Virus record (IMG/VR): IMGVR_UViG_3300010399_000032
From: a virus
Strand: one strand, 5' to 3'
Length of the DNA: 64,000 nt
Position 1 is the stretch's first letter, and every line of letters begins with the position of its first letter. Both the position numbers and the translations under genes were made by a program. Under the pieces are notes generated by a model. It did not search any database. It had not been told where the DNA came from and was given only the letters and a program-made list of their open reading frames with translations. Below are positions 6,931 through 55,524 of this stretch, in pieces.

Positions 6931-7006
6931 TGGAGGTCTAGCCCAGAATTGAACTGGGTTATACGGGTTTGCAATCCGCTACGTAAATCCGTTCCGCCAC
7001 TAGACC
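6931..7006 (-). tRNA. tRNA-Cys(GCA)
   Basis: Loop TT GCA AA, U73, CCA. Confidence 0.9.
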
Positions 7007-7011
7007 AATTT

Positions 7012-7085
7012 TGGTAGCCAGCGAGGGAGTCAAACCCACGTAACTAGTGTGTAAAACTAGCGTTCTTTCGTTGAACTAGCCGGCC
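7012..7085 (-). tRNA. tRNA-Val(UAC)
   Basis: CTAGT-TT TAC AC-ACTAG, A73, CCA. Confidence 0.88.
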
Positions 7086-7555
7086 ATAATGGCTTTATAA
7101 TGTTTATGCACAATGGTATCAGATACACCTAATGCCCTGGCCATCGCACGATAAGTTCCATATATTTGTTTTAATTCAAGTAAATCTATTGATGACCAAT
7201 CTAATTTTGTAGCCGAAGGTAATTCATATTCGTGTAAATATTGATCGGCAATCGATTGATCAAAACTGGATGTATATATAACATTAAATATATGTGCTTC
7301 TCTATGACAATTTGCACATAATAGAGTACATTTTTTTAGTTCTTCAATTTGCCTAGGTAATGAAGCGTTTTTGAATTCTAATTCCTTAGTATTCATATCC
7401 AAATGATGAAATTCGAGCGCTGCGTTACATTTGTTATAACCACAATTTTGACATTTATTTCCCATAATATGGAGTAATCTAAGTTTAACCTTCCTTCTCC
7501 ATTCAGTCATCTTTTTTGATCTTGGTTTAACTTGTGACATATGTCTATACCTCAA
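7076..7555 (-). CDS. HNH endonuclease, probably a free-standing homing endonuclease
   Basis: CQNCG...LEFHH...LLCANCHREAH motif and C-terminal HTH-like segment; CTAAATA at 7568-7574. Confidence 0.85.
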   Translation of the reverse strand: MRYRHMSQVKPRSKKMTEWRRKVKLRLLHIMGNKCQNCGYNKCNAALEFHHLDMNTKELEFKNASLPRQIEELKKCTLLCANCHREAHIFNVIYTSSFDQSIADQYLHEYELPSATKLDWSSIDLLELKQIYGTYRAMARALGVSDTIVHKHYKAIMAG

Positions 7556-7607
7556 ACATTATATCACTATTTAGTTAACTTTGATCACCTGGCTCAGGGG
7601 GCAAACT

Positions 7608-7880
7608 TTAATCCTGTTGCTCTAACTTTTCCTTGACTTTCTTGGATATCTTAGCAAGTTTTTGTGGGTTAGTCAACTTCTTATCTTTTAAAACATTATC
7701 AATTTCATGAAAAGATCCACGGTACCAATAAAGCCCTGATTCCATTGCATTTGCATGGATCTGAATCCGTTCAATAACCGCAGCAAGCCCAGAATAATCG
7801 CGGGTTTCATGCATTTTCCTGAGTGTTTCCAACTCAGTACAGATATAATCATCAGTCAAAATACGATATTGTTTGGACAT
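7608..7880 (-). CDS. Hypothetical protein
   Basis: AAGGT SD, 90-aa frame. Confidence 0.65.
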   Translation of the reverse strand: MSKQYRILTDDYICTELETLRKMHETRDYSGLAAVIERIQIHANAMESGLYWYRGSFHEIDNVLKDKKLTNPQKLAKISKKVKEKLEQQD

Positions 7881-7897
7881 TACGATAACCTTAAATT

Positions 7898-7972
7898 TGG
7901 TAGGGCCCGGCAGACTCGAACTGCCGTATTGCGGATAACGTTATCTTCCGCCTAAGCTTCCTTGCTTGCCCC
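7898..7972 (-). ncRNA. Degenerate tRNA-like RNA with no readable anticodon
   Basis: Perfect T-arm GGCAG-TTCGAGT-CTGCC and ACCA end; 5-bp acceptor; GCGGA/TCCGC stem with 11-nt loop. Confidence 0.55.
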
Positions 7973-7976
7973 ATAA

Positions 7977-8059
7977 TGGAGGACACGGTGGGACTCGAAC
8001 CCACGGTGTTGTATAGCGGATTAAAAGTCCGCGCCGTTCGCCACTACGGTAACGTGTCC
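7977..8059 (-). tRNA. tRNA-Lys(UUU) with an 11-nt variable region
   Basis: GCGGA-CT TTT AA-TCCGC, U73, CCA. Confidence 0.88.
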
Positions 8060-8108
8060 ATTCTGCATGGCTGGCTACCTCTATGAACTATAAGCTATAC
8101 AACATCAA

Positions 8109-8738
8109 TTAGACTCGACCTTTATACCATCCATCCGGTATGGAGTCAAGCTTTTTAATTTTTCTATTGGTGATACCATCCGTTATCCACATGGTACCAA
8201 ATTGGGAATTTTTTGTTCCAGTTTGGTGAATTGAATTTGCTTCACCAATTTTTCGTTTGGTTTCTAATGAATGGTTTCGGCCAACCCAATGGTGTATATA
8301 ACCAGCTTGATGTGTTTTAATTAATAAAGAATTTGAAATATTTGCAGACCATTCCTGTTTCCAATTAGAATTCTGCATTAATAATTGTAAATTTTTTGTT
8401 CCAATTTTCCTGTTTTCTTTTGCTATTTCAGCATGTTTAGGATAATTCCATAATTCATTTTGGTTAATATATCCAAACCCACCTTTACCACCTTCACAAA
8501 GATTATAACTCTGCTCGGAAATTACTACCAACTCCTTTTCCTTGGCATTCATTTCTTCCTCAGTCTGGAATACATGGAGGATTTCCTTGGTAAAATTGGA
8601 TTTACCGTATTTTTGAATGGCTCTCCTGATTAATCTACCGGAGCCCATATAACCATCGTTGAGGTCTTTGGTTTGATGCTTCCCGATATAGAATTTACCG
8701 TTGAGGTTATTAGTTATTTTATAGATGGTATAAAACAA
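8109..8738 (-). CDS. GIY-YIG (Seg-like) homing endonuclease
   Basis: IYKITN...FYIGKH...YMGSG motif, NUMOD3-like HSLETKRKIG, C-terminal MWITDG...GWYKGR. Confidence 0.9.
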   Translation of the reverse strand: MFYTIYKITNNLNGKFYIGKHQTKDLNDGYMGSGRLIRRAIQKYGKSNFTKEILHVFQTEEEMNAKEKELVVISEQSYNLCEGGKGGFGYINQNELWNYPKHAEIAKENRKIGTKNLQLLMQNSNWKQEWSANISNSLLIKTHQAGYIHHWVGRNHSLETKRKIGEANSIHQTGTKNSQFGTMWITDGITNRKIKKLDSIPDGWYKGRV

Positions 8739-8742
8739 TTAG

Positions 8743-8793
8743 GAAATCTCCGGAAGAAAGGTTTTATACCTTATTTCTACTTCCGGAGATTTC
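8743..8793 (-). promoter_or_regulatory. 14-bp hairpin covering the SD of the GIY-YIG gene
   Basis: GAAATCTCCGGAAG/CTTCCGGAGATTTC inverted repeat; GGAG in the 3' arm; TATAAAA in the loop. Confidence 0.55.
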
Positions 8794-8797
8794 AATG

Positions 8798-8868
8798 TTG
8801 GGGAAACTGGATTCGAACCAATATAGGCGATTCCAAAGACCGCCGTCCTGCCGTTAGACGATTCCCCA
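8798..8868 (-). tRNA. tRNA-Gln(UUG); CCA not encoded
   Basis: GCGGT-CT TTG GA-ATCGC, U1:A72. Confidence 0.88.
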
Positions 8869-9028
8869 TAAAAAATCTGTGGTAGCCCATTGGTTATCAA
8901 GAAACGACCAGGCATATGACCTCCTGGCTACCACCACAATTTGCAAGGCTGGTGTGCATTTACCGCAGCAATCCTCACACCATTTAACAATCAAGTTTTA
9001 TCGCCAGAGGCTTCTTGATTGCACCTAT

Positions 9029-9102
9029 TGGAGCGAGCGGAGGGAATCGAACCCTCGTCTAAACGTTGGCAACGTCTGGCTCTACCATTGAGCTACGCCA
9101 GC
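9029..9102 (-). tRNA. tRNA-Gly(GCC)
   Basis: Loop TT GCC AA, U73, CCA. Confidence 0.92.
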
Positions 9103-9109
9103 ATTAATT

Positions 9110-9183
9110 TGGCACGTCAACTCAGAGTCAAACTGAGGCCCTCGGGTTTGGAGGCCGATGTGCTATCGTAACACTTTTGACGT
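9110..9183 (-). tRNA. tRNA-Trp(CCA)
   Basis: Loop CT CCA AA, A1:U72, G73, CCA; A8 and U11:A24. Confidence 0.88.
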
Positions 9184-9191
9184 GTATAAAC

Positions 9192-9267
9192 TGGTGCCTA
9201 AGGAGGAAATCGAATCCCCGACGCGTGGATCTTCAATCCACCGCTCTACCGACTGAGCTACATAGGC
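9192..9267 (-). tRNA. tRNA-Phe(GAA)
   Basis: GTGGA-TT GAA GA-TCCAC, CCA. Confidence 0.92.
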
Positions 9268-9275
9268 ATAAAATT

Positions 9276-9350
9276 TGGTAGTCCTACACGGCTTCGAACC
9301 GCAGATACACCCCTATCAAGGGCGCGTTTTTCCAACTAAACTATAGGACC
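9276..9350 (-). tRNA. tRNA-Ile(GAU)
   Basis: CGCCC-TT GAT AG-GGGTG, CCA. Confidence 0.88.
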
Positions 9351-9351
9351 A

Positions 9352-9428
9352 TGGCTCCGGTCGCTGGTTTCGAACCAGCCGTACATTGATTAACAGTCAA
9401 TTGCCTCCACCAAGTTGGCTTGACCGGA
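9352..9428 (-). tRNA. tRNA-Asn(GUU)
   Basis: ATTGA-CT GTT AA-TCAAT, G73, CCA. Confidence 0.92.
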
Positions 9429-9439
9429 ATAATTCTTAA

Positions 9440-9468
9440 TTTATATCATAATATGGAAAGAATGGCAA
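9440..9468 (-). promoter_or_regulatory. Sigma70-like promoter ahead of a tRNA block
   Basis: TTGCCA-17 nt-TATAAA with TGn extension, just upstream of tRNA-Asn. Confidence 0.6.
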
Positions 9469-9488
9469 TAGAGTACCTATTATTTATT

Positions 9489-10100
9489 TCAAGTAAGCAC
9501 CAATGAACCATTATTGCCGGGATTGCCGTTTAGACCGCCGTTCTCGCCGGTGCCACCGGCGCCGCCGGAACCGACTGATACGGTTATCGCCACACCAGCC
9601 GAAAAGAGTGAGGCCGTCTTTATAGCCCGACCACCTGTGCCTCCTGCTCCACCTGAGCCGGCGCCAATACCTGCTCCACCTGAGCCGCCGGTACTGCCGC
9701 CGGCCGTGGTGTTAATATCGCCACCCGAGGCCGTGCCGGAAGCGCCGGCCGATCCGTTTGCGGTAGGGTTGCGCTGGCCGCCTTGGCCGCCACCGCCACC
9801 GTTGCCGGTCACGCCGTTTAGACTAGTCTGTCCCCCGGTGCCGCCGGTGCCGGCTATCTGTTGTGTCGAACCACCACTTTCGGAGCCTCCACCACCACCA
9901 CCTCCCGCGGCAATCGCGTCAACTTTGGCGCTAAATGTAAATAGCGGGGTAAGAGTCCATGAGCCGGGCCCGAAGGTGACGGCGCCATTAGCATCAAGGT
10001 CCCATAAGGTTCGCCCTGAAACCGCAGGAGAAATATTAAACTGTCTCGGAGCATATCCGAAACCACCTATAGCAGCGCCAAGCCCTGGTACAATAGTCAT
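9489..10100 (-). CDS. Glycine-rich protein, probably virion or fibre associated
   Basis: GGGGGG and GxGGxGG repeats; CTAAATA late motif at 10131-10137. Confidence 0.75.
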   Translation of the reverse strand: MTIVPGLGAAIGGFGYAPRQFNISPAVSGRTLWDLDANGAVTFGPGSWTLTPLFTFSAKVDAIAAGGGGGGGSESGGSTQQIAGTGGTGGQTSLNGVTGNGGGGGQGGQRNPTANGSAGASGTASGGDINTTAGGSTGGSGGAGIGAGSGGAGGTGGRAIKTASLFSAGVAITVSVGSGGAGGTGENGGLNGNPGNNGSLVLT

Positions 10101-10145
10101 AGAATCTTCCTAAATCGATGAATGATCACCTATTTAGGAAGAATT

Positions 10146-10346
10146 TTAAATGTTTACCCCTGAAAGTGACAGTGGATGAACTAGCAACACAATACCTGCA
10201 ATTGCCCATATCAACCATCCTAGGATGGCTTTAAGCCCACCATCCATGAACGGTGCTGTAGAAATCAACCAATTCAATCCAACTGCAACTGCAATAACGA
10301 CAATAGCAAAAATTGCAAATGTTAATAGTGCTGTGGCTGTAATCAT
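10146..10346 (-). CDS. Small membrane protein with two hydrophobic helices
   Basis: GAGGA SD before MITATALLTF...; the longer listed start overlaps tRNA-Gly. Confidence 0.7.
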   Translation of the reverse strand: MITATALLTFAIFAIVVIAVAVGLNWLISTAPFMDGGLKAILGWLIWAIAGIVLLVHPLSLSGVNI

Positions 10347-10363
10347 TGATTGCTTCCTCTTAT

Positions 10364-10438
10364 TGGAGCGGCCAGGGAGATTCGAACTCCCGACGTATTG
10401 CTTGGAAGGCAATCATTCTACCCCTGAATTATAGCCGC
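10364..10438 (-). tRNA. tRNA-Gly(UCC)
   Basis: ATTGC-CT TCC AA-GCAAT, U73, CCA. Confidence 0.93.
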
Positions 10439-10440
10439 AT

Positions 10441-11133
10441 TTATTTCTTCAAAAGTTTATCAATAGAATCTAATGTGGCAAACCAGGAAATGTTGTTATT
10501 ATCACTCTGGACGAACGATGCTAACCCCACCAAATAGTATTGCCCATTTATATTTGCATATAATCCACCACCTGAATTACCTACATCAAGTGGTACGGAC
10601 GTTCGATAAAATAATCCAGAAATATCTGGAACAGGAGACTTGGTTACTGACCCGAATTCTCCATTAGTCTTTAAAATACCTTCCGCTCTAGGAAAACCTA
10701 CGGTGAATAAAGCATCACCAAATTGTGGGATATATCCTTTTGGGGCCAGTTGAACATATGGTTCTTTAATACTGGTATCTTGTAATTTCAAAATAGCTAT
10801 ATCATTGGATATATCTAATGAAACCAATGATAATTTATAATGAGTTTCAGTTACAACGTTAAGATTGGTATCTACCGAAACGTCATGCAAACTAAATGAG
10901 GTTCCCACCTTTCCATTATCCGCAACACAGTGACCGGCTGTTAAATATTCTGTGGGGCTAATAAATTCACCCGAACAGGTAGCGGATTCTGCATTACCCG
11001 ATGCATCAGCCATACCAGAAGTGTAAAGTTCCTTGGTTGCTGATTGAATGGTGGCTAAACTACTCGCAAAAACAGGGCTCGATAATCCAAGGATTAATCC
11101 AACCCCTATGATAACTGATTTGAAAATATTCAT
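10441..11133 (-). CDS. Exported trypsin-like (S1) serine protease
   Basis: Triad motifs LTAGHCV, DIAIL, GNSGGGL; signal peptide after ATG 11133 with AGGAG SD; ATAAATA at 11157-11163. Confidence 0.88.
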   Translation of the reverse strand: MNIFKSVIIGVGLILGLSSPVFASSLATIQSATKELYTSGMADASGNAESATCSGEFISPTEYLTAGHCVADNGKVGTSFSLHDVSVDTNLNVVTETHYKLSLVSLDISNDIAILKLQDTSIKEPYVQLAPKGYIPQFGDALFTVGFPRAEGILKTNGEFGSVTKSPVPDISGLFYRTSVPLDVGNSGGGLYANINGQYYLVGLASFVQSDNNNISWFATLDSIDKLLKK

Positions 11134-11178
11134 AATGTCTCCTTTCATGGAAACCCTATTTATGAATATTTTCGAAAA

Positions 11179-11268
11179 TGGTGGGTCCCCGAGGACTCGA
11201 ACCTCTCGTCCACCCCCTACCGGTTTCATAGACAGCGGTTTTACAGACCGCAGGCAGGAAAGGGACCC
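11179..11268 (-). tRNA. Non-canonical tRNA-Tyr(GUA) without a conventional D-arm
   Basis: Acceptor GGGTCCC/GGGACCC, 10-nt linker, GCGGT-CT GTA AA-ACCGC, 28-nt extra region, TTCGAGT loop, ACCA. Confidence 0.75.
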
Positions 11269-11272
11269 GAAA

Positions 11273-11366
11273 TGGCGGATAGTGTAGGATTTGAACCCAC
11301 GGAACGGGATGATTACCGTTCAACAGTTTTCAGGACTGCCGGCATAAGCCACTCGCCCAACTATCC
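11273..11366 (-). tRNA. tRNA-Ser(UGA)
   Basis: Long V-arm, G73, loop CC TGA AA (C33), CCA. Confidence 0.92.
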
Positions 11367-11375
11367 ATTAAATTT

Positions 11376-11454
11376 TGGTGGACTCGGTCGGAATCGAACC
11401 GACCTCAGCCTCCTTGCAAGGGAGGCTCGCCTAACCCTTGGTACATTCGAGCCC
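11376..11454 (-). tRNA. tRNA-Ala(UGC) with an irregular D-arm
   Basis: G3:U70, A73, CCTCC-CT TGC AA-GGAGG, CCA. Confidence 0.88.
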
Positions 11455-11531
11455 ATTGAATTTTGGATGACCTCAGGCTTTCCAGTCATCCCGATTGAGA
11501 TTTTACCACCAATGGTACTCAATCATATTTA

Positions 11532-11608
11532 TGGCGTCGGGCGTGGTTCTAACCCACATTCGAGTTTCCGGTTGTTCCTACCGGGCTCAGCATCATGCTA
11601 TACCCAAC
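11532..11608 (-). ncRNA. Degenerate tRNA-like RNA
   Basis: Acceptor GTTGGGT/GCCCGAC plus GCCA; three internal hairpins (AGCA/TGCT, CCGGT/ACCGG, GTGG/CCAC) with non-canonical loops. Confidence 0.5.
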
Positions 11609-11613
11609 AAAAA

Positions 11614-11687
11614 TGGCGGTTCCAAGGGGAATCGAACCCCTGTGACTTGATAGACGGTCAAGCATTCTACCATTGAACTATGGAACC
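11614..11687 (-). tRNA. tRNA-Asp(GUC)
   Basis: CTTGA-CC GTC TA-TCAAG (C33, U37), G73, CCA. Confidence 0.9.
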
Positions 11688-11692
11688 AAAAA

Positions 11693-11864
11693 TGGCACAT
11701 TCCGCGGGATTCGAACCAGTCCACCGTCACAGTGGCTTTTTACGCATCTCCAGGCCCGAAACCAAACAAGCTTTTGACTGACTAGGTCTAATCACTGGGT
11801 ATATTTGGCTGGTTTCCTTACGGCCCAACCGACCTGGTGTTTTACCATTTACTACTAGGAATGT
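11693..11864 (-). ncRNA. 172-nt tRNA-like RNA with an expanded anticodon domain and split T-stem
   Basis: Acceptor ACATTCC/GGAATGT plus GCCA; ATGGTAAAAC D-like strand; CCAGGTC/GGCCTGG stem; GGTTCGAATCC loop. Confidence 0.6.
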
Positions 11865-11867
11865 AAC

Positions 11868-12002
11868 TCGATTACGTCTAAGGTTAATCTTGTGCTGGTC
11901 GGTGTTGAACCGGCATCGAGGCGCTTTCGACACCCCATTTTTCCTTAAACTACATCCAATTTGAGGCCTCGCGATGGCCATGTTAACCTTAGACGTAATC
12001 GA
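11868..12002 (-). ncRNA. Structured RNA closed by a perfect 20-bp inverted repeat around tRNA-like arms
   Basis: TCGATTACGTCTAAGGTTAA (11868-11887) is the reverse complement of 11983-12002; interior has D-like, anticodon-like and GGTTCAAC T-like hairpins. Confidence 0.5.
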
Positions 12003-12321
12003 ATAGAAATTTTCCAGTACCGAAGTCACGCCAACGATTTTGTGACTTTCACCCTTCTCGGGCACATTACCAGGCTCATCCCCATCGCGGTGCCTGTTTC
12101 AAACATACTGGCAGGTAGGGCAATTTTCGACTATCACCACAACCTCAAGCTTACCAGGATTGTTCTAGAATTTGCCTGGTATAGCCTTTGAACTAAATTG
12201 GTGCGGCACTCTCTGCGGGCTTTTACCACACTTATCGCATGTCTGGCCGTTGTGTCGCGGAAAACCAGAAGTGCTTTCTGTGACAGAGGAAGCCAATTGG
12301 TCTTATTTTCCTCTGTCAAAT

Positions 12322-12398
12322 TGGTCTGGCTAGAAAGATTCAAACTTTCGACCCCCTGGTCCCAAGCCAGGTGCTCTATCAAGCTGAGCTATAGCCAG
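12322..12398 (-). tRNA. tRNA-Pro(UGG)
   Basis: CCTGG-CT TGG GA-CCAGG, C1:G72, A73, CCA. Confidence 0.9.
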
Positions 12399-12480
12399 TC
12401 AAGAATTTAATGGGCCAATGTTTTGATAACCGAGAATTGGTCCTTTACACCTTTCGGCGCACCTCTATACTCGGTAGAAA

Positions 12481-12559
12481 TGGTCGGCCCTGTGGGATTC
12501 GAACTCACGATCCCCTGCTCCCAAAGCAGGTGCTTTAAACCACACTAAGCTAAAAGCCG
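12481..12559 (-). tRNA. tRNA-Pro(UGG), second divergent copy
   Basis: CCTGC-TT TGG GA-GCAGG, C1:G72, A73, CCA. Confidence 0.92.
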
Positions 12560-12796
12560 TTTTAAGAATAAGAAATCTGGGTCTGCCCCAACGCCTGAGG
12601 CGCTATCCTCAAGTTCAATTACCATGGCAGATAGGTTGGATTCGTCCTGTGGTCCGCAGACACACCTTCATCCTCGGGCTTTCGTTCCCAGAAACTAAGC
12701 CGGTGCAGTTTATTTAGCCCGCCGGAAGGCTCTACTCTTATATCCTTCTCCTCACCCCTTGGGTACCTGGGTTCGATACGTCCTGATATAAGAAAC

Positions 12797-13156
12797 TTAA
12801 TACTTCTCCCACCGGTCCTTCATCTTTTCGATGTTTTCCTGAGGAACACCATGGAGATTAACATAGGAACCTTCCATAGTCAAGACCGTTTTGGGGTTGG
12901 GTAAATTCAGATACTTCTGGAATTCCCAAATTCGTGAAAAGGTGTTAGCTACTGCAACATCCGTATTCCTTAACCACCAAAGTACCTCATTATAGCACCA
13001 TTCGTGGGCCTGTGGCAACTTCGATGGATTGAACTGATATTCGCCAGCATTCTCAAAAAACTGGTCGGACTCAACTACCTTGACTCCGAGTTTGTGGGCA
13101 AAAGTACTCTTACCAGAGCCAGGAAGCCCACGAATGATATAAAGATGGTTCATCAT
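12797..13156 (-). CDS. Small P-loop kinase (AAA_33 / polynucleotide-kinase-like)
   Basis: RGLPGSGKST Walker A, VANTF, HGVP motifs. Confidence 0.85.
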   Translation of the reverse strand: MMNHLYIIRGLPGSGKSTFAHKLGVKVVESDQFFENAGEYQFNPSKLPQAHEWCYNEVLWWLRNTDVAVANTFSRIWEFQKYLNLPNPKTVLTMEGSYVNLHGVPQENIEKMKDRWEKY

Positions 13157-13380
13157 TTATCCATATAAGTGTCAACCCAAAGGGACCAGACACCCCGCGC
13201 TTCCTTCTCGGTCAACCCGTAGGTATCAGCCAGAATAGGAGCAGCACCAAACATATTCACCAGACCCGACTCGCGGAGAGCATCGAGGAAGCCATAGAAC
13301 TTCTTAAGCTCATCCTGGGTAAAAACACGGGTACTATTCGAGGTATTCTTGGTCATCACGACCTCGTTCTCTAAACTCAT
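13153..13380 (-). CDS. Hypothetical phage protein
   Basis: FLDALRESGLVNMFGAAP segment; coupled to the kinase gene. Confidence 0.65.
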   Translation of the reverse strand: MSLENEVVMTKNTSNSTRVFTQDELKKFYGFLDALRESGLVNMFGAAPILADTYGLTEKEARGVWSLWVDTYMDK

Positions 13381-14155
13381 AATGGAGATATAATGCTTAT
13401 CCTCAGATTTTCAATGGTCAGAATTTGAAATATTTTTGCGTTGTTTTTGCTTTTCAGAGAATTCTTTTGTATGTTTCATCGCCTGATCAATGGCTTTTTG
13501 CAAGTTAACGATTTTAAGGTATAACATCAAACCATCTTGCCAACCATCTTCCTTACATCCGGCTAATGCATAAGTCACTAATTCTGTTTGCATTTCGCTT
13601 GCAGTTTTAGCGATATAACTCAAATCAGACTTATAAAACTTAGTCATATCACCGATTCATCTTTTAATATACATCAAACCCAATTCACTTACAGGTTTAT
13701 AACCGTTAGATAATAATTCCTCTTTGGTCTTGGAATTCTCATATAATAGTTTTACCGCGTTATTACTAATTGGTTGAACGCCAATTAATTCCTGCGCAAT
13801 TTTATTTGGGCCGTTTTCCCGTATTTTTCGTAATTCATCCGGATTTAGCATTAAACACCATCACCCAGGTGCAAATCATGTATCATCTTGGCTGCCATAA
13901 TAATCCCAAATAGGATTAAACCAATGACAAAAACTAACTCGGTGTAAAAGATGATCTGGCTCATTTAATATTTAGAATACGAATAAATCATAACAAAAAT
14001 CAATGTAAGTACAGCCGAGAATATTGCTGTAATGAAAAATCTATTTTGAATGTCTGGATATGGAAGCCAAATGGCCAATAACCCGGTAACAATCACTATA
14101 ATTCCCGTGACCCAAAACATCCAAGCTTTAATCATCATATTCTCATTATTTAATG

Positions 14156-14231
14156 TGGTGCGCAAGGTGGGGGTTGAACCCACGCTACCAGCGTTTTGAG
14201 GGCTGCGACTCTACCTTTGGTCTACTTGCGC
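14156..14231 (-). tRNA. tRNA-Leu(CAA), short variable loop
   Basis: Loop CT CAA AA, A73, CCA; body nearly identical to tRNA-Leu(UAG) at 2817. Confidence 0.88.
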
Positions 14232-14459
14232 TTAAAATCCGTGAGTATCATATGGTTCGCGAACCCTGGTATCACCCAAAAATGAACTATACATACCAGA
14301 CGCGAGAGAAATTATAACCAACACAATGGCGGTTGCTATCATACTTGATTGAGTGTCACCCGATTCCCAACAAGCAATAAGGGCACCTAACCCAGCCGAA
14401 ATTGCTGCAAATAAAGAAACAATACCCCAGAATAATCGATAACCTTCACTCTTATGCAT
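14232..14459 (-). CDS. Small membrane protein
   Basis: Two hydrophobic helices, AGGA SD. Confidence 0.6.
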   Translation of the reverse strand: MHKSEGYRLFWGIVSLFAAISAGLGALIACWESGDTQSSMIATAIVLVIISLASGMYSSFLGDTRVREPYDTHGF

Positions 14460-14473
14460 TTTATATCCTATTA

Positions 14474-14551
14474 TGGTGCTCCCACTGGGATTCGAACCCA
14501 GACTGGGCGGGATTTAAATCCGCTGCCTCCTACCGGTTGGGCTATGAGAGC
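14474..14551 (-). tRNA. tRNA-Leu(UAA), short variable loop
   Basis: Loop TT TAA AT, A73, CCA. Confidence 0.87.
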
Positions 14552-14563
14552 AATTTCTAAAAC

Positions 14564-14640
14564 TGGTGCTCCTGGAGGAACTCGAATCCTCACTTGACAC
14601 CTCCTCAAGGTGGTTCCTCTACCTATTGGGATACAGGAGC
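14564..14640 (-). tRNA. tRNA-Leu(GAG), short variable loop
   Basis: Loop TT GAG GA, A73, CCA. Confidence 0.87.
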
Positions 14641-15359
14641 TAATTTATTCATGTATTCTATACCAGAATTGGTGATCTTGGCAAGAGTAACTTTTTTACG
14701 AACACCATCACCAATTCGGCACAATGTCATATATTTATGACTCAAAAGGAATTTCATTGCTGGTTCTTGCACCAGGGCGAAGCACCATTTGATATTCACA
14801 GAAACTCCATCAAGTGCATGGGCCCTATGAAGGATTTCCAGTTTTCTCTTTGCAGAATTGGAAATCCTATTACTCATGTCGTATACCTAAACACAAAATC
14901 CTTCTTAGGACCACGTTTTGTACTAGCATATGGATAAAACTTACCCTTGATCCTCTTCCTTATAGTCACCACAAAAGCCCTCATGGAACCAATATGCCAA
15001 TGATCAACACCAGGTTGCTTTACATTGTAGAGACGCCAAGGTACCTTCACCTCACCGGCTGAATTTGCATCGCGCCAGGCATTCCGACGTTCGGCGCGAT
15101 ATGTACTCGAATCTCTAATCATTCCACTTTCTCCAATTCAGGTCCTTTTAGGAAGGTATTGAAATCGAAATCCTTACCTTTTTGGACAATCCTAGCTCGG
15201 GTAAATCCCTCATAGAAATTTGGAGAGATTTCCTTGGCCTGTGGTAGAGTTGAAATGAAAACTCGACCGGCGATCTGATTTTCTACGGGTTCCTCGAAAC
15301 GGGCTCGACCATAGAAATATTCAACAAAAAATTCAGGGGTTTCCATGACAATTCCAAAA

Positions 15360-15441
15360 TGGTGATCCTGGCCGGGCTCGAACCGACATACTCCACTTAC
15401 GCTATTAACGACCGCTTAGAAGGCGGTGGCGATACAGGACC
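15360..15441 (-). tRNA. Non-canonical tRNA-Arg(UCU) without a conventional D-arm
   Basis: Same 82-nt layout as 4333-4414; ACCGC-CT TCT AA-GCGGT, ACCA. Confidence 0.75.
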
Positions 15442-54234: not shown

Positions 54235-55524
54235 TTATCTACCAACTTGGTCGAGATATTTTGCCTTGGTCTCATCCCATGACATATAGATCAAATCATC
54301 ATAGAAAAGCGTCTCAGAGGACACTCTCCCCTGCTCCTGGAGAGACTTAATACGTTTAGCTGCATACTTGGTCTTCCAAATATCCGAGAGGTCCTGGTAG
54401 CTTGTAGGAAACGCCTTAACCAATTGAGATTCATGTATTTCTCCTCTTAGAAATTCTCGGGAATTATTATAGAGAGGAGAAAAATAGATTCCTCTTTGGT
54501 GTTCCGATCTAATAAGGTCTTTAGGAATACTTAGCTTTGAATAAACAAAATTGTAAGAACGGTTCTTATGATCACGTTTATATGGTTGACCTGATGGTTT
54601 CTTTGCTACATACCATTCGAAATACTTGCGAGGATATTCAGCCATCAACCATTTTTGTAACATTTTCACAGTAGGTCTTGTAGCTTCATAGGAAACCGAG
54701 CCGGATGAATATCCCATTTTCTGCCAATACTTTAATCCATCATATTGACTTAAACCTCCTTGCTTGTCCTTACCATATAAGGAAGTTGTAGTGACACCGA
54801 TAAGAGTATCTCCGTACTCGGCTTTCCATCTTTGCTGTACTTCATCTGATAAGCACAATAAAGCCAGCAGTTTTCCGCCCACATAATTGTATCCTAATGG
54901 TTGTAGAGGAACAATCGTTGAGCCAATTGCAGTATAATTGATCATATGACCTTGAGTTTTGTTGGTTCTTTCCCATCCAATATATTGGTCACGAGGGGTC
55001 AAATCAAGAAAATCGGATGAAATACAAATAACACCCAGATATTTTCCTGTTACAGAATCTTCAACAATATAATTAAGATTTCGACCAATATTTGAATTAT
55101 TCTTCATAGTCGAAGTAAAAGTTCGGATACAATTCCAAGTCTCGGAGAGGTCTGCTTCCTTTGTATAGACTAGTCGAGGTTGGATATTAAGGAAATCATT
55201 AACTTCATTAGGAATCCAAAGATTAGATTTGACTTGCCTGATCAATTTATCTTGTTCGGGATCAATCAACTTGGTCTTTTTACCAAATAAAGTCATGACT
55301 GTATGAGTTGGATATTTGTTATGTATTTCGTGCCACTTCTGAAATAAAGTATATTCTCCTACACTCATTTGTGAGGCGTAAGTCAAATCCATCACTAATG
55401 CATTATATAGAGCATCCTGGTTAATTTTCTCAAAACTATCAGGATTGTTGTCTTTAACCCATTGATTATATTGTGCTTCTAACAGAGGGTCGGTGTCATC
55501 CTCAAGAATTTCAGTATCGGTCAT
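54235..55524 (-). CDS. DUF4338 / Druantia DruA-like protein
   Basis: GR.L...V.D..TGKYLGVI...RD.YIGW, GGKLLALL, TTTSLYG, SQY. Confidence 0.7.
   Translation of the reverse strand: MTDTEILEDDTDPLLEAQYNQWVKDNNPDSFEKINQDALYNALVMDLTYASQMSVGEYTLFQKWHEIHNKYPTHTVMTLFGKKTKLIDPEQDKLIRQVKSNLWIPNEVNDFLNIQPRLVYTKEADLSETWNCIRTFTSTMKNNSNIGRNLNYIVEDSVTGKYLGVICISSDFLDLTPRDQYIGWERTNKTQGHMINYTAIGSTIVPLQPLGYNYVGGKLLALLCLSDEVQQRWKAEYGDTLIGVTTTSLYGKDKQGGLSQYDGLKYWQKMGYSSGSVSYEATRPTVKMLQKWLMAEYPRKYFEWYVAKKPSGQPYKRDHKNRSYNFVYSKLSIPKDLIRSEHQRGIYFSPLYNNSREFLRGEIHESQLVKAFPTSYQDLSDIWKTKYAAKRIKSLQEQGRVSSETLFYDDLIYMSWDETKAKYLDQVGR

Follow-up and report, generated by a model that had tools for sequence, protein, structure and literature searches.

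A probable tyrosine tRNA with a rewired, pseudoknotted core in phages and bacterial tRNA arrays

Background

Can an RNA that lacks the D hairpin of the cloverleaf still act as a tyrosine tRNA? This question is raised by a short locus at positions 11179-11268 of a viral DNA (IMG/VR record IMGVR_UViG_3300010399_000032), of which a stretch of 64,000 nucleotides, referred to here as the window, was analysed. Several parts of the locus agree with the canonical description of a tRNA. The anticodon arm has a 5-bp stem and a 7-nt loop with U33 and a purine at position 37, the acceptor stem is closed by A73 and an encoded CCA, and the T arm carries a TTCRA-type loop. The linker between the acceptor and anticodon stems is only 9-10 nt long, where about 20 nt including a D hairpin would be expected. 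The D stem-loop hairpin is absent from this interval and the linker bases pair with a distant strand instead.

The commonly used tRNA finders do not report the gene. In the window, ARAGORN called no tRNA at 11179-11268, and Rfam at its gathering score returned neither a tRNA nor a match to RF00005 at this position. When matches with E values up to 10 were allowed, the best Rfam match at the gene was tRNA-Sec, with 24.1 bits against a cut-off of 47. A literature search found no description of an 8/4 tRNA-Tyr fold that lacks the D hairpin and has a pseudoknotted core.

Results

Elements of the gene

The gene can be divided into the following elements.

11179..11268, minus strand: rewired tRNA-Tyr(GUA), whole gene, 90 nt, with the encoded CCA at 11179-11181 and A73 at 11182
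11261..11268, minus strand: 5′ strand of the acceptor stem, GGGUCCCU, 8 nt; partner GGGGACCC at 11183-11190; pair 8 is U-G
11253..11258, minus strand: 5′ strand of the D helix, CCUGCC, with UU (11259-11260) before it and a single U (11252) after it; partner at 11216-11221
11235..11251, minus strand: anticodon arm, with the 5-bp stem GCGGU/ACCGC and the 7-nt loop CUGUAAA; GUA at 11242-11244
11231..11234, minus strand: 5′ strand of the V helix, UGUC, directly 3′ of the anticodon stem; partner GACG at 11207-11210
11222..11230, minus strand: connecting loop UAUGAAACC, A/U-rich, between the 5′ strand of the V helix and the 3′ strand of the D helix
11216..11221, minus strand: 3′ strand of the D helix, GGUAGG; partner at 11253-11258
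11211..11215, minus strand: GGGUG, with a conserved GG right after the D strand; GG columns at least 90 % conserved in the alignment of 79 viral sequences
11207..11210, minus strand: 3′ strand of the V helix, GACG, crossing the D helix
11191..11205, minus strand: T arm, with the 4-bp stem GAGG/CCUC (11202-11205 with 11191-11194) and the loop UUCGAGU; A 11206 is unpaired

All five helices of the family described below form in the window's sequence. With 8 bp in the acceptor stem and 4 bp in the T stem, the linker proper consists of UU, CCUGCC and U. A preliminary description, made from the sequence of the window alone, had proposed a 10-nt linker, TTT-CCTGCC-T, pairing over 6 bp with GGTAGG. 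The pairing, in which one of the six base pairs is G-U, is borne out by covariation in relatives, and the extent of the linker is to be corrected. The GGUAGG strand lies inside the 28 nt between the anticodon arm and the T arm. At the position of a variable arm the 4-bp stem UGUC/GACG starts, and its enlarged loop contains the D-helix strand. Across the family the connecting loop is A/U-rich and of variable length, about 7-12 nt.

A GTGGA motif just before the T stem had also been singled out. It is not conserved in the alignment of the Tyr family and corresponds to an overlap between the GG 3′ of the D strand (in this gene GGGUG, in most members UGG) and the first bases of GACG; what is conserved is the GG. 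From sequence comparison we propose that this GG is the equivalent of G18 G19 in a normal D-loop.

Taken singly, the sequence says little about the pairing. A 6-bp match is given equally by 69 % of composition-preserving shuffles of the linker and variable region, and it is the pyrimidine-rich linker and the G-rich variable region that underlie such chance matches. The fold energy is unremarkable (z-score -1.29), although the ensemble centroid does contain the 6-bp helix. With neither measure significant, both were dropped as single-sequence evidence. Since the pairing within one sequence is not beyond chance, comparison with relatives was needed.

Relatives in phages and bacterial arrays

A first search pattern, built on GTGGA, gave a few clear relatives. 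The main pattern omitted GTGGA and imposed TTCC, the Tyr anticodon loop and the T loop; the invariance of these three elements in the viral and bacterial sets is thus by construction. In viral contigs the main pattern matched 106 stretches, from which 79 distinct sequences with a perfect acceptor stem were obtained. These 79, including the window's own, constitute alignment A2 and family model R1, the columns of the V helix being left out of the model. The gene scores 85.4 bits on R1 (E 4e-28) over the full model length, part of this score being by construction because its own sequence is among the 79, and it is the sole R1 match in the window.

In bacterial genome contigs the same pattern matched 92 stretches, of which 48 score 72-91 bits on R1. 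As they were absent from the set used to build R1, these 48 sequences serve as an independent check. Alcaligenaceae matches and others from the bacterial search lack stems and were rejected as members. Family RNAs range in size from 85 to 96 nt.

Among cultured phages, BLAST located an unannotated copy in one, the 45-kb Pseudomonas phage Rembedalsseter; queries with other family members returned Rembedalsseter only. The rewired Tyr gene is the sole tRNA-like gene of this phage and has a CGUC/GACG pair in its V helix. A set of 80 loci, collected as PolB relatives, contained one further rewired tRNA gene, an Arg(UCU) gene in L002. A further odd tRNA-like layout was noted in three viral contigs (L152, L154 and L162), where a T-arm-like hairpin is followed by a CCGUAAUUGGAGCUC element and another T arm.

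Five helices and a crossed core

Pair counting over the 79 viral sequences reveals five helices: an acceptor stem of 8 bp, a D helix of 6 bp, the anticodon stem, a V helix of 4 bp and a T stem of 4 bp. The D helix, which has the form CCNNNN with NNNNGG, encloses the anticodon arm. The V helix joins the four bases right after the anticodon stem to the four just before the T stem. A pseudoknotted core results, as the V helix crosses the D helix.

The helices are maintained through sequence change. In the viral set 93.8 % of cells are paired compared to 69.1 % in shuffles, and the covariation score is 0.672 compared to 0.183 for shuffled data; none of 500 shuffles reaches the observed score, and slid controls stay at or below 0.13. 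For the 48 bacterial sequences the paired fraction is 98.1 %. The D helix is paired at 96.8 % in the viral and 98.3 % in the bacterial set, with changes on both sides at four of its six pairs. When each D strand is matched with its own partner, 70 of the 79 sequences form all six pairs, whereas only 13 % do so when partners are swapped between members. Although it was not modelled, the V helix is paired at 94.8 % in the bacterial set, where one of its pairs occurs as CG (24 sequences), UA (20) and GC (3). Pair 8 of the acceptor stem is GC in 43, UG in 18, AU in 8, UA in 8 and CG in one of the viral sequences, and GC in 38, UG in 8, AU in one and UA in one of the bacterial ones. The anticodon stem covaries in both sets. 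Of the T-stem pairs, the inner two never change and the outer two change without loss of pairing, again in both sets.

A reading of the locus as an intron-containing or permuted gene was tried and rejected: the acceptor halves lie at both ends of the gene, and no removal of a single segment restores the cloverleaf order. The gene shows every feature that defines the R1 family and, judged on sequence, is a member of a rewired 8/4 pseudoknotted tRNA-Tyr family. The earlier suggestion of a general alternative tRNA class is supported by the occurrence of the Tyr fold in 79 viral sequences and 48 from bacterial arrays, where each helix shows compensatory changes, and by the existence of a related Arg class.

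Tyrosine identity

Tyr identity in bacteria depends on A73, U35 and G1-C72 (PMC9976931). The anticodon loop CT GTA AA and A73, previously put forward as fitting Tyr identity, are both present in the gene, and so is G1-C72. Across the family A73, G1-C72 and CCA can be counted as features outside the search pattern. A73 is found in 77 of 79 viral and all 48 bacterial sequences, and G1 in 78 of 79 and again all 48; pair 1-72 is GC in 78 viral sequences, UA in one, and GC throughout the bacterial set. The CCA is encoded in 63 of the 79 viral copies but in only 10 of the 48 copies from bacterial arrays.

With the anticodon left free in the pattern, GUA was present in 16 of 17 true members and UCU in the remaining one. 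The member with UCU (Arg) is the viral sequence L433:6409-6470 (minus strand), which has the Tyr-type fold (TTCC linker, CCCGAC/GUUGGG helix, GG) together with U73, so that the fold does not go strictly with Tyr.

A related arginine class

Three rewired tRNA-Arg genes occur on the same contig and were missed by both ARAGORN and Rfam.

Window 4333-4414, minus strand: rewired tRNA-Arg(ACG)
Window 15360-15441, minus strand: rewired tRNA-Arg(UCU)
L313:12158-12236, plus strand: rewired tRNA-Arg(UCG), just outside the window

The only ordinary Arg gene on the contig is Arg(CCU). Among the three rewired copies a 3-bp linker pairing covaries (CGG/CCG, CGC/GCG, CUG/CAG). A search with an Arg pattern gave 111 viral stretches comprising 74 distinct sequences, the window's copies included, with the anticodons UCU, ACG, UCG and CCU and a single CUU (Lys). 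One linker position in this class covaries as G-C (28 sequences), A-U (25) and U-A (1) against 4 mismatches. On this comparative evidence we regard the Arg class as real. An exact 22-mer of the Arg type, following the GTGGA idea, had no match in viral contigs.

The Tyr gene had been described as sharing the architecture of the Arg genes, and this holds in part: both lack the D hairpin and pair the 5′ linker with bases 3′ of the anticodon arm that have a GG element after or within them, but the split of the stems and the continuity of the helix differ. The Arg class has 7/5 stems, a linker of the form UA-N-C(C)G.. and a helix split by a bulged UAANUGGA; no candidate for a second crossing helix was noticed in it. 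In contrast, the Tyr class is 8/4, has a contiguous 6-bp helix without UAANUGGA and possesses the second, crossing helix. On the Tyr model R1 the Arg genes reach only 28-30 bits.

Genomic context

The gene is located in a dense tRNA cluster on the minus strand, extending from 787 to 15441, in which ARAGORN finds 29 tRNAs and Rfam 26. It starts 4 nt downstream of tRNA-Ser(UGA) on the same strand. Directly downstream of it lies a gene for a trypsin-like protease, for which no relatives were found in viral contigs. A perfect inverted repeat, GAAAATATTCATAA ... TTATGAATATTTTC (window 11114-11182), surrounds the ribosome-binding site and start codon of the protease gene and could occlude translation or be a processing site.

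Other genes of the cluster are unusual in their own ways. A tRNA with a CUA anticodon (5495-5572, minus strand), labelled 'Pyl' by ARAGORN, is a possible amber suppressor. A tRNA-like sequence at 7898-7972 (minus strand) has an acceptor stem, a D arm, a T arm and CCA and is called by no finder; its anticodon region can be drawn with an 11-nt loop or with an extended stem and a 3-nt loop. The tRNA-Trp(CCA) at 9113-9183 (minus strand) has an unusual T loop, UUUGACU, and is scored at 45 bits by Rfam and not called by ARAGORN. Three ARAGORN predictions, Ile(UAU) at 2604-2697, Met(CAU) at 2698-2789 and Lys(UUU) at 7977-8059 (minus strand), are unusually long for class I (94, 92 and 83 nt) and may have long variable arms or insertions.

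The window is part of a 120,180-bp ENA contig, with 1 mismatch in 10,764 bases and none in 13,500 over the two stretches compared. The contig belongs to a T4-like phage, encoding gp23, a T4-type portal, UvsW and UvsY. It also carries an ADP-ribosyltransferase-like gene next to the portal gene, and the window encodes, at 54235-55524 (minus strand), a phage protein matching Druantia DruA (PF14236, E 2.5e-21).

In the window no other gene with a GUA anticodon was detected by ARAGORN, Rfam or the R1 scan, in agreement with the gene being the sole Tyr tRNA there. The whole contig was then read as overlapping loci and scanned with ARAGORN and Rfam. Outside the window it adds Thr(UGU), Thr(CGU), Arg(CCU) and Ser(GCU). 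A canonical tRNA-Tyr elsewhere, which would have spoken against the proposal, is absent from the 120,180 bp of the contig, which may be less than the whole phage genome. The tRNAs of the contig cover the other 19 amino acids, so that Tyr alone is missing without the rewired gene and all 20 are served with it.

This pattern recurs in other large sets. Fifteen viral loci combine a rewired Tyr gene with 20 or more tRNAs called by ARAGORN. In 13 of them Tyr is absent from the ordinary calls, and any other amino acid is absent from 3 loci at most. Both forms are present in some genomes, and the rewired gene is therefore not always needed for Tyr codons. A complete 364-kb phage has an ordinary and a rewired Tyr gene, and Lacipirellula limnantheis has an ordinary one in its native Thr-Tyr-Gly-Thr cluster and a rewired copy, flanked by Leu(CAA) and Glu(CUC), in a separate array of 27 low-scoring tRNAs. 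The idea that the rewired gene is the native tRNA-Tyr of Planctomycetota was rejected on that one complete bacterial genome, where the ordinary gene occupies the Thr-Tyr-Gly-Thr cluster and the rewired gene a separate, low-scoring array. In five Planctomycetota chromosomes (L385, L327, L377, L338, L359) each array packs 22-31 tRNA genes into about 4 kb, with the rewired Tyr gene in a fixed position between Leu(CAA) and Glu(CUC). In the one genome compared, the array tRNAs have much lower Rfam scores than the dispersed ones. Thus, given the genomes that hold both forms, the fold pertains to accessory tRNA sets of phages and arrays and not to core bacterial sets.

Discussion

We consider it probable that the product of the gene is a functional tyrosine tRNA whose core departs from the cloverleaf. 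EF-Tu recognises a 12-bp acceptor/T branch (PMC5389517), a length that stems of 8 and 4 bp preserve. In the core, CCUGCC would take the place of cloverleaf positions 22-25, because just one nucleotide lies between it and the 5′ strand of the anticodon stem. The GGUAGG strand would run away from the anticodon like positions 10-13 and then lead into GG, as in a D-loop. We envisage the 6-bp D helix as stacked on the anticodon stem, where it would replace the 4-bp D stem and, above this, two tertiary layers. In tRNA-Sec a D stem of 6 bp likewise replaces a 4-bp stem plus tertiary layers. If the equivalence in three dimensions holds, the GG after the D helix would contact the T loop as G18 G19 do and produce the L shape. 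As the V stem appears to begin where the variable arm of a class II tRNA begins, the molecule may be seen as a class II tRNA whose variable-arm loop contributes the GG element and one strand of the D stem. The host TyrRS would then charge the RNA by way of G1-C72, A73 and the GUA anticodon, and the RNA would decode UAY for the phage.

How this fold relates to known tRNAs can be assessed at several levels. Ordinary class II tRNA-Tyr(GUA) (RF00005; L311:7641-7727, L415:1975-2057) shares with it the CUGUAAA-type loop, G1-C72, A73, the TTCGA-type T loop, a long stretch from the anticodon arm to the T arm and a location in tRNA clusters. The rewired form differs by having no D hairpin, 8/4 instead of 7/5 stems and a pseudoknotted core in which a 6-bp D helix is made with a strand from the variable-arm loop; it also scores below the Rfam cut-off. 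The D-arm-lacking tRNAs of animal mitochondria are reduced in size, carry a short unpaired loop in place of the arm and act together with mitochondrial factors that have co-evolved with them. Like the rewired Tyr genes they lack the D hairpin and are missed by general-purpose finders; in the rewired Tyr RNAs, by contrast, the D helix is rebuilt at full length, the size is 85-96 nt and the occurrence is in phages and bacteria. The (8/4) and (9/3) tRNAs include allo-tRNAs, 8/4 tRNA-Ser and tRNA-His of phages and bacteria, and tRNA-Sec (Mukai et al., PMC5389517). They share with the rewired Tyr class the 12-bp branch, a 6-bp D helix, what may be taken as a long variable arm and presence in phage clusters. 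However, they stay cloverleaves, with a long D stem capped by a tetraloop and a plain variable hairpin, and Tyr is not included among them (PMC5389517). The rewired form is a real structural variant of tRNA, and apparently an undescribed one.

The coexistence of both Tyr forms in the complete 364-kb phage and in a bacterium lends some weight to the view that the RNA is a tRNA-like decoy, occupying a host factor (a tRNA-Tyr-cutting nuclease or TyrRS) and delivering no tyrosine to the ribosome. The 45-kb Pseudomonas phage, moreover, has no tRNA-like gene besides the rewired Tyr, a situation that would suit an anti-defence gene, and decoy or supplement roles for phage tRNA-Tyr have been discussed (PMC13096335). 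We nevertheless judge a decoy unlikely: the features of translation are all conserved, namely the 12-bp branch, the T loop, the 7-nt loop with GUA, A73 and CCA, and in most large arrays, as on this phage's contig, the rewired gene provides for the single amino acid otherwise lacking. It is quite improbable that an RNA of this fold accepts an amino acid other than tyrosine or serves some special decoding purpose, as G1-C72, A73 and G34 U35 A36, which constitute the Tyr identity set of bacteria (PMC9976931), are conserved and most arrays have nothing else to fill the Tyr slot. This is so even though the core normally read by synthetases and modification enzymes is rebuilt, one member (L433) has a UCU (Arg) anticodon and some 8/4 tRNAs have been proposed to be missense or nonsense suppressors (PMC5389517).

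A decayed tRNA-Tyr pseudogene, with its D arm deleted and an accidental 6-bp complementarity, would be compatible with a pairing expected by chance in the single sequence, with a fold energy that is not unusual and with rejection of the gene by tRNA finders. However, 127 distinct relatives from unrelated phages and bacteria share this layout and show compensatory changes in five helices. No covariation would be seen in a pseudogene, and this reading is contradicted to the point of being very hard to believe.

If a functional tyrosine tRNA is indeed encoded, why would its core be rewired? The Septu and retron-Eco7 PtuAB systems stop phages by cutting the variable arm of tRNA-Tyr, and the tRNA-Tyr of T5 escapes through a different variable loop (PMC13096335, PMC11555353). 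tRNA arrays have likewise been discussed as possible anti-defence sets (PMC12803027). Because Septu and retron-Eco7 PtuAB cleave the variable arm of tRNA-Tyr, it is plausible that a variable arm locked in a pseudoknot could evade tRNA-Tyr-cutting defences, as the preliminary description had supposed in more general terms. The stronger version, in which the non-cloverleaf tRNA-Tyr of phages and mobile arrays is fully active in translation and has been selected since its core can be neither recognised nor cut by nucleases of the Septu/retron PtuAB type, is a tentative proposal by analogy that we think may well be wrong. Speculatively, the rebuilt variable-arm/D region may be kept as a poor substrate for defence nucleases that cut this arm in ordinary tRNA-Tyr.

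Conclusions

The genes of this class are missed by ARAGORN and Rfam, and phage and array inventories are therefore wrongly without Tyr, often also without Arg. Such omissions distort analyses of codon usage and of anti-defence functions. In a survey of tRNA arrays Tyr is among the rarest isotypes (PMC4758250); as a speculation, missed rewired genes could contribute to this rarity. Since the variable arm of tRNA-Tyr is a known target of defence, the class also bears on the arms race centred on tRNA.

The cloverleaf is treated as near-universal for elongator tRNAs outside organelles, and the class described here would show the L shape reached through another topology. It would also offer a natural system in which to ask what a tRNA must provide to TyrRS, EF-Tu, RNase P, modification enzymes and the ribosome, with Pseudomonas phage Rembedalsseter on P. 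trivialis as a cultured pair for experiments.
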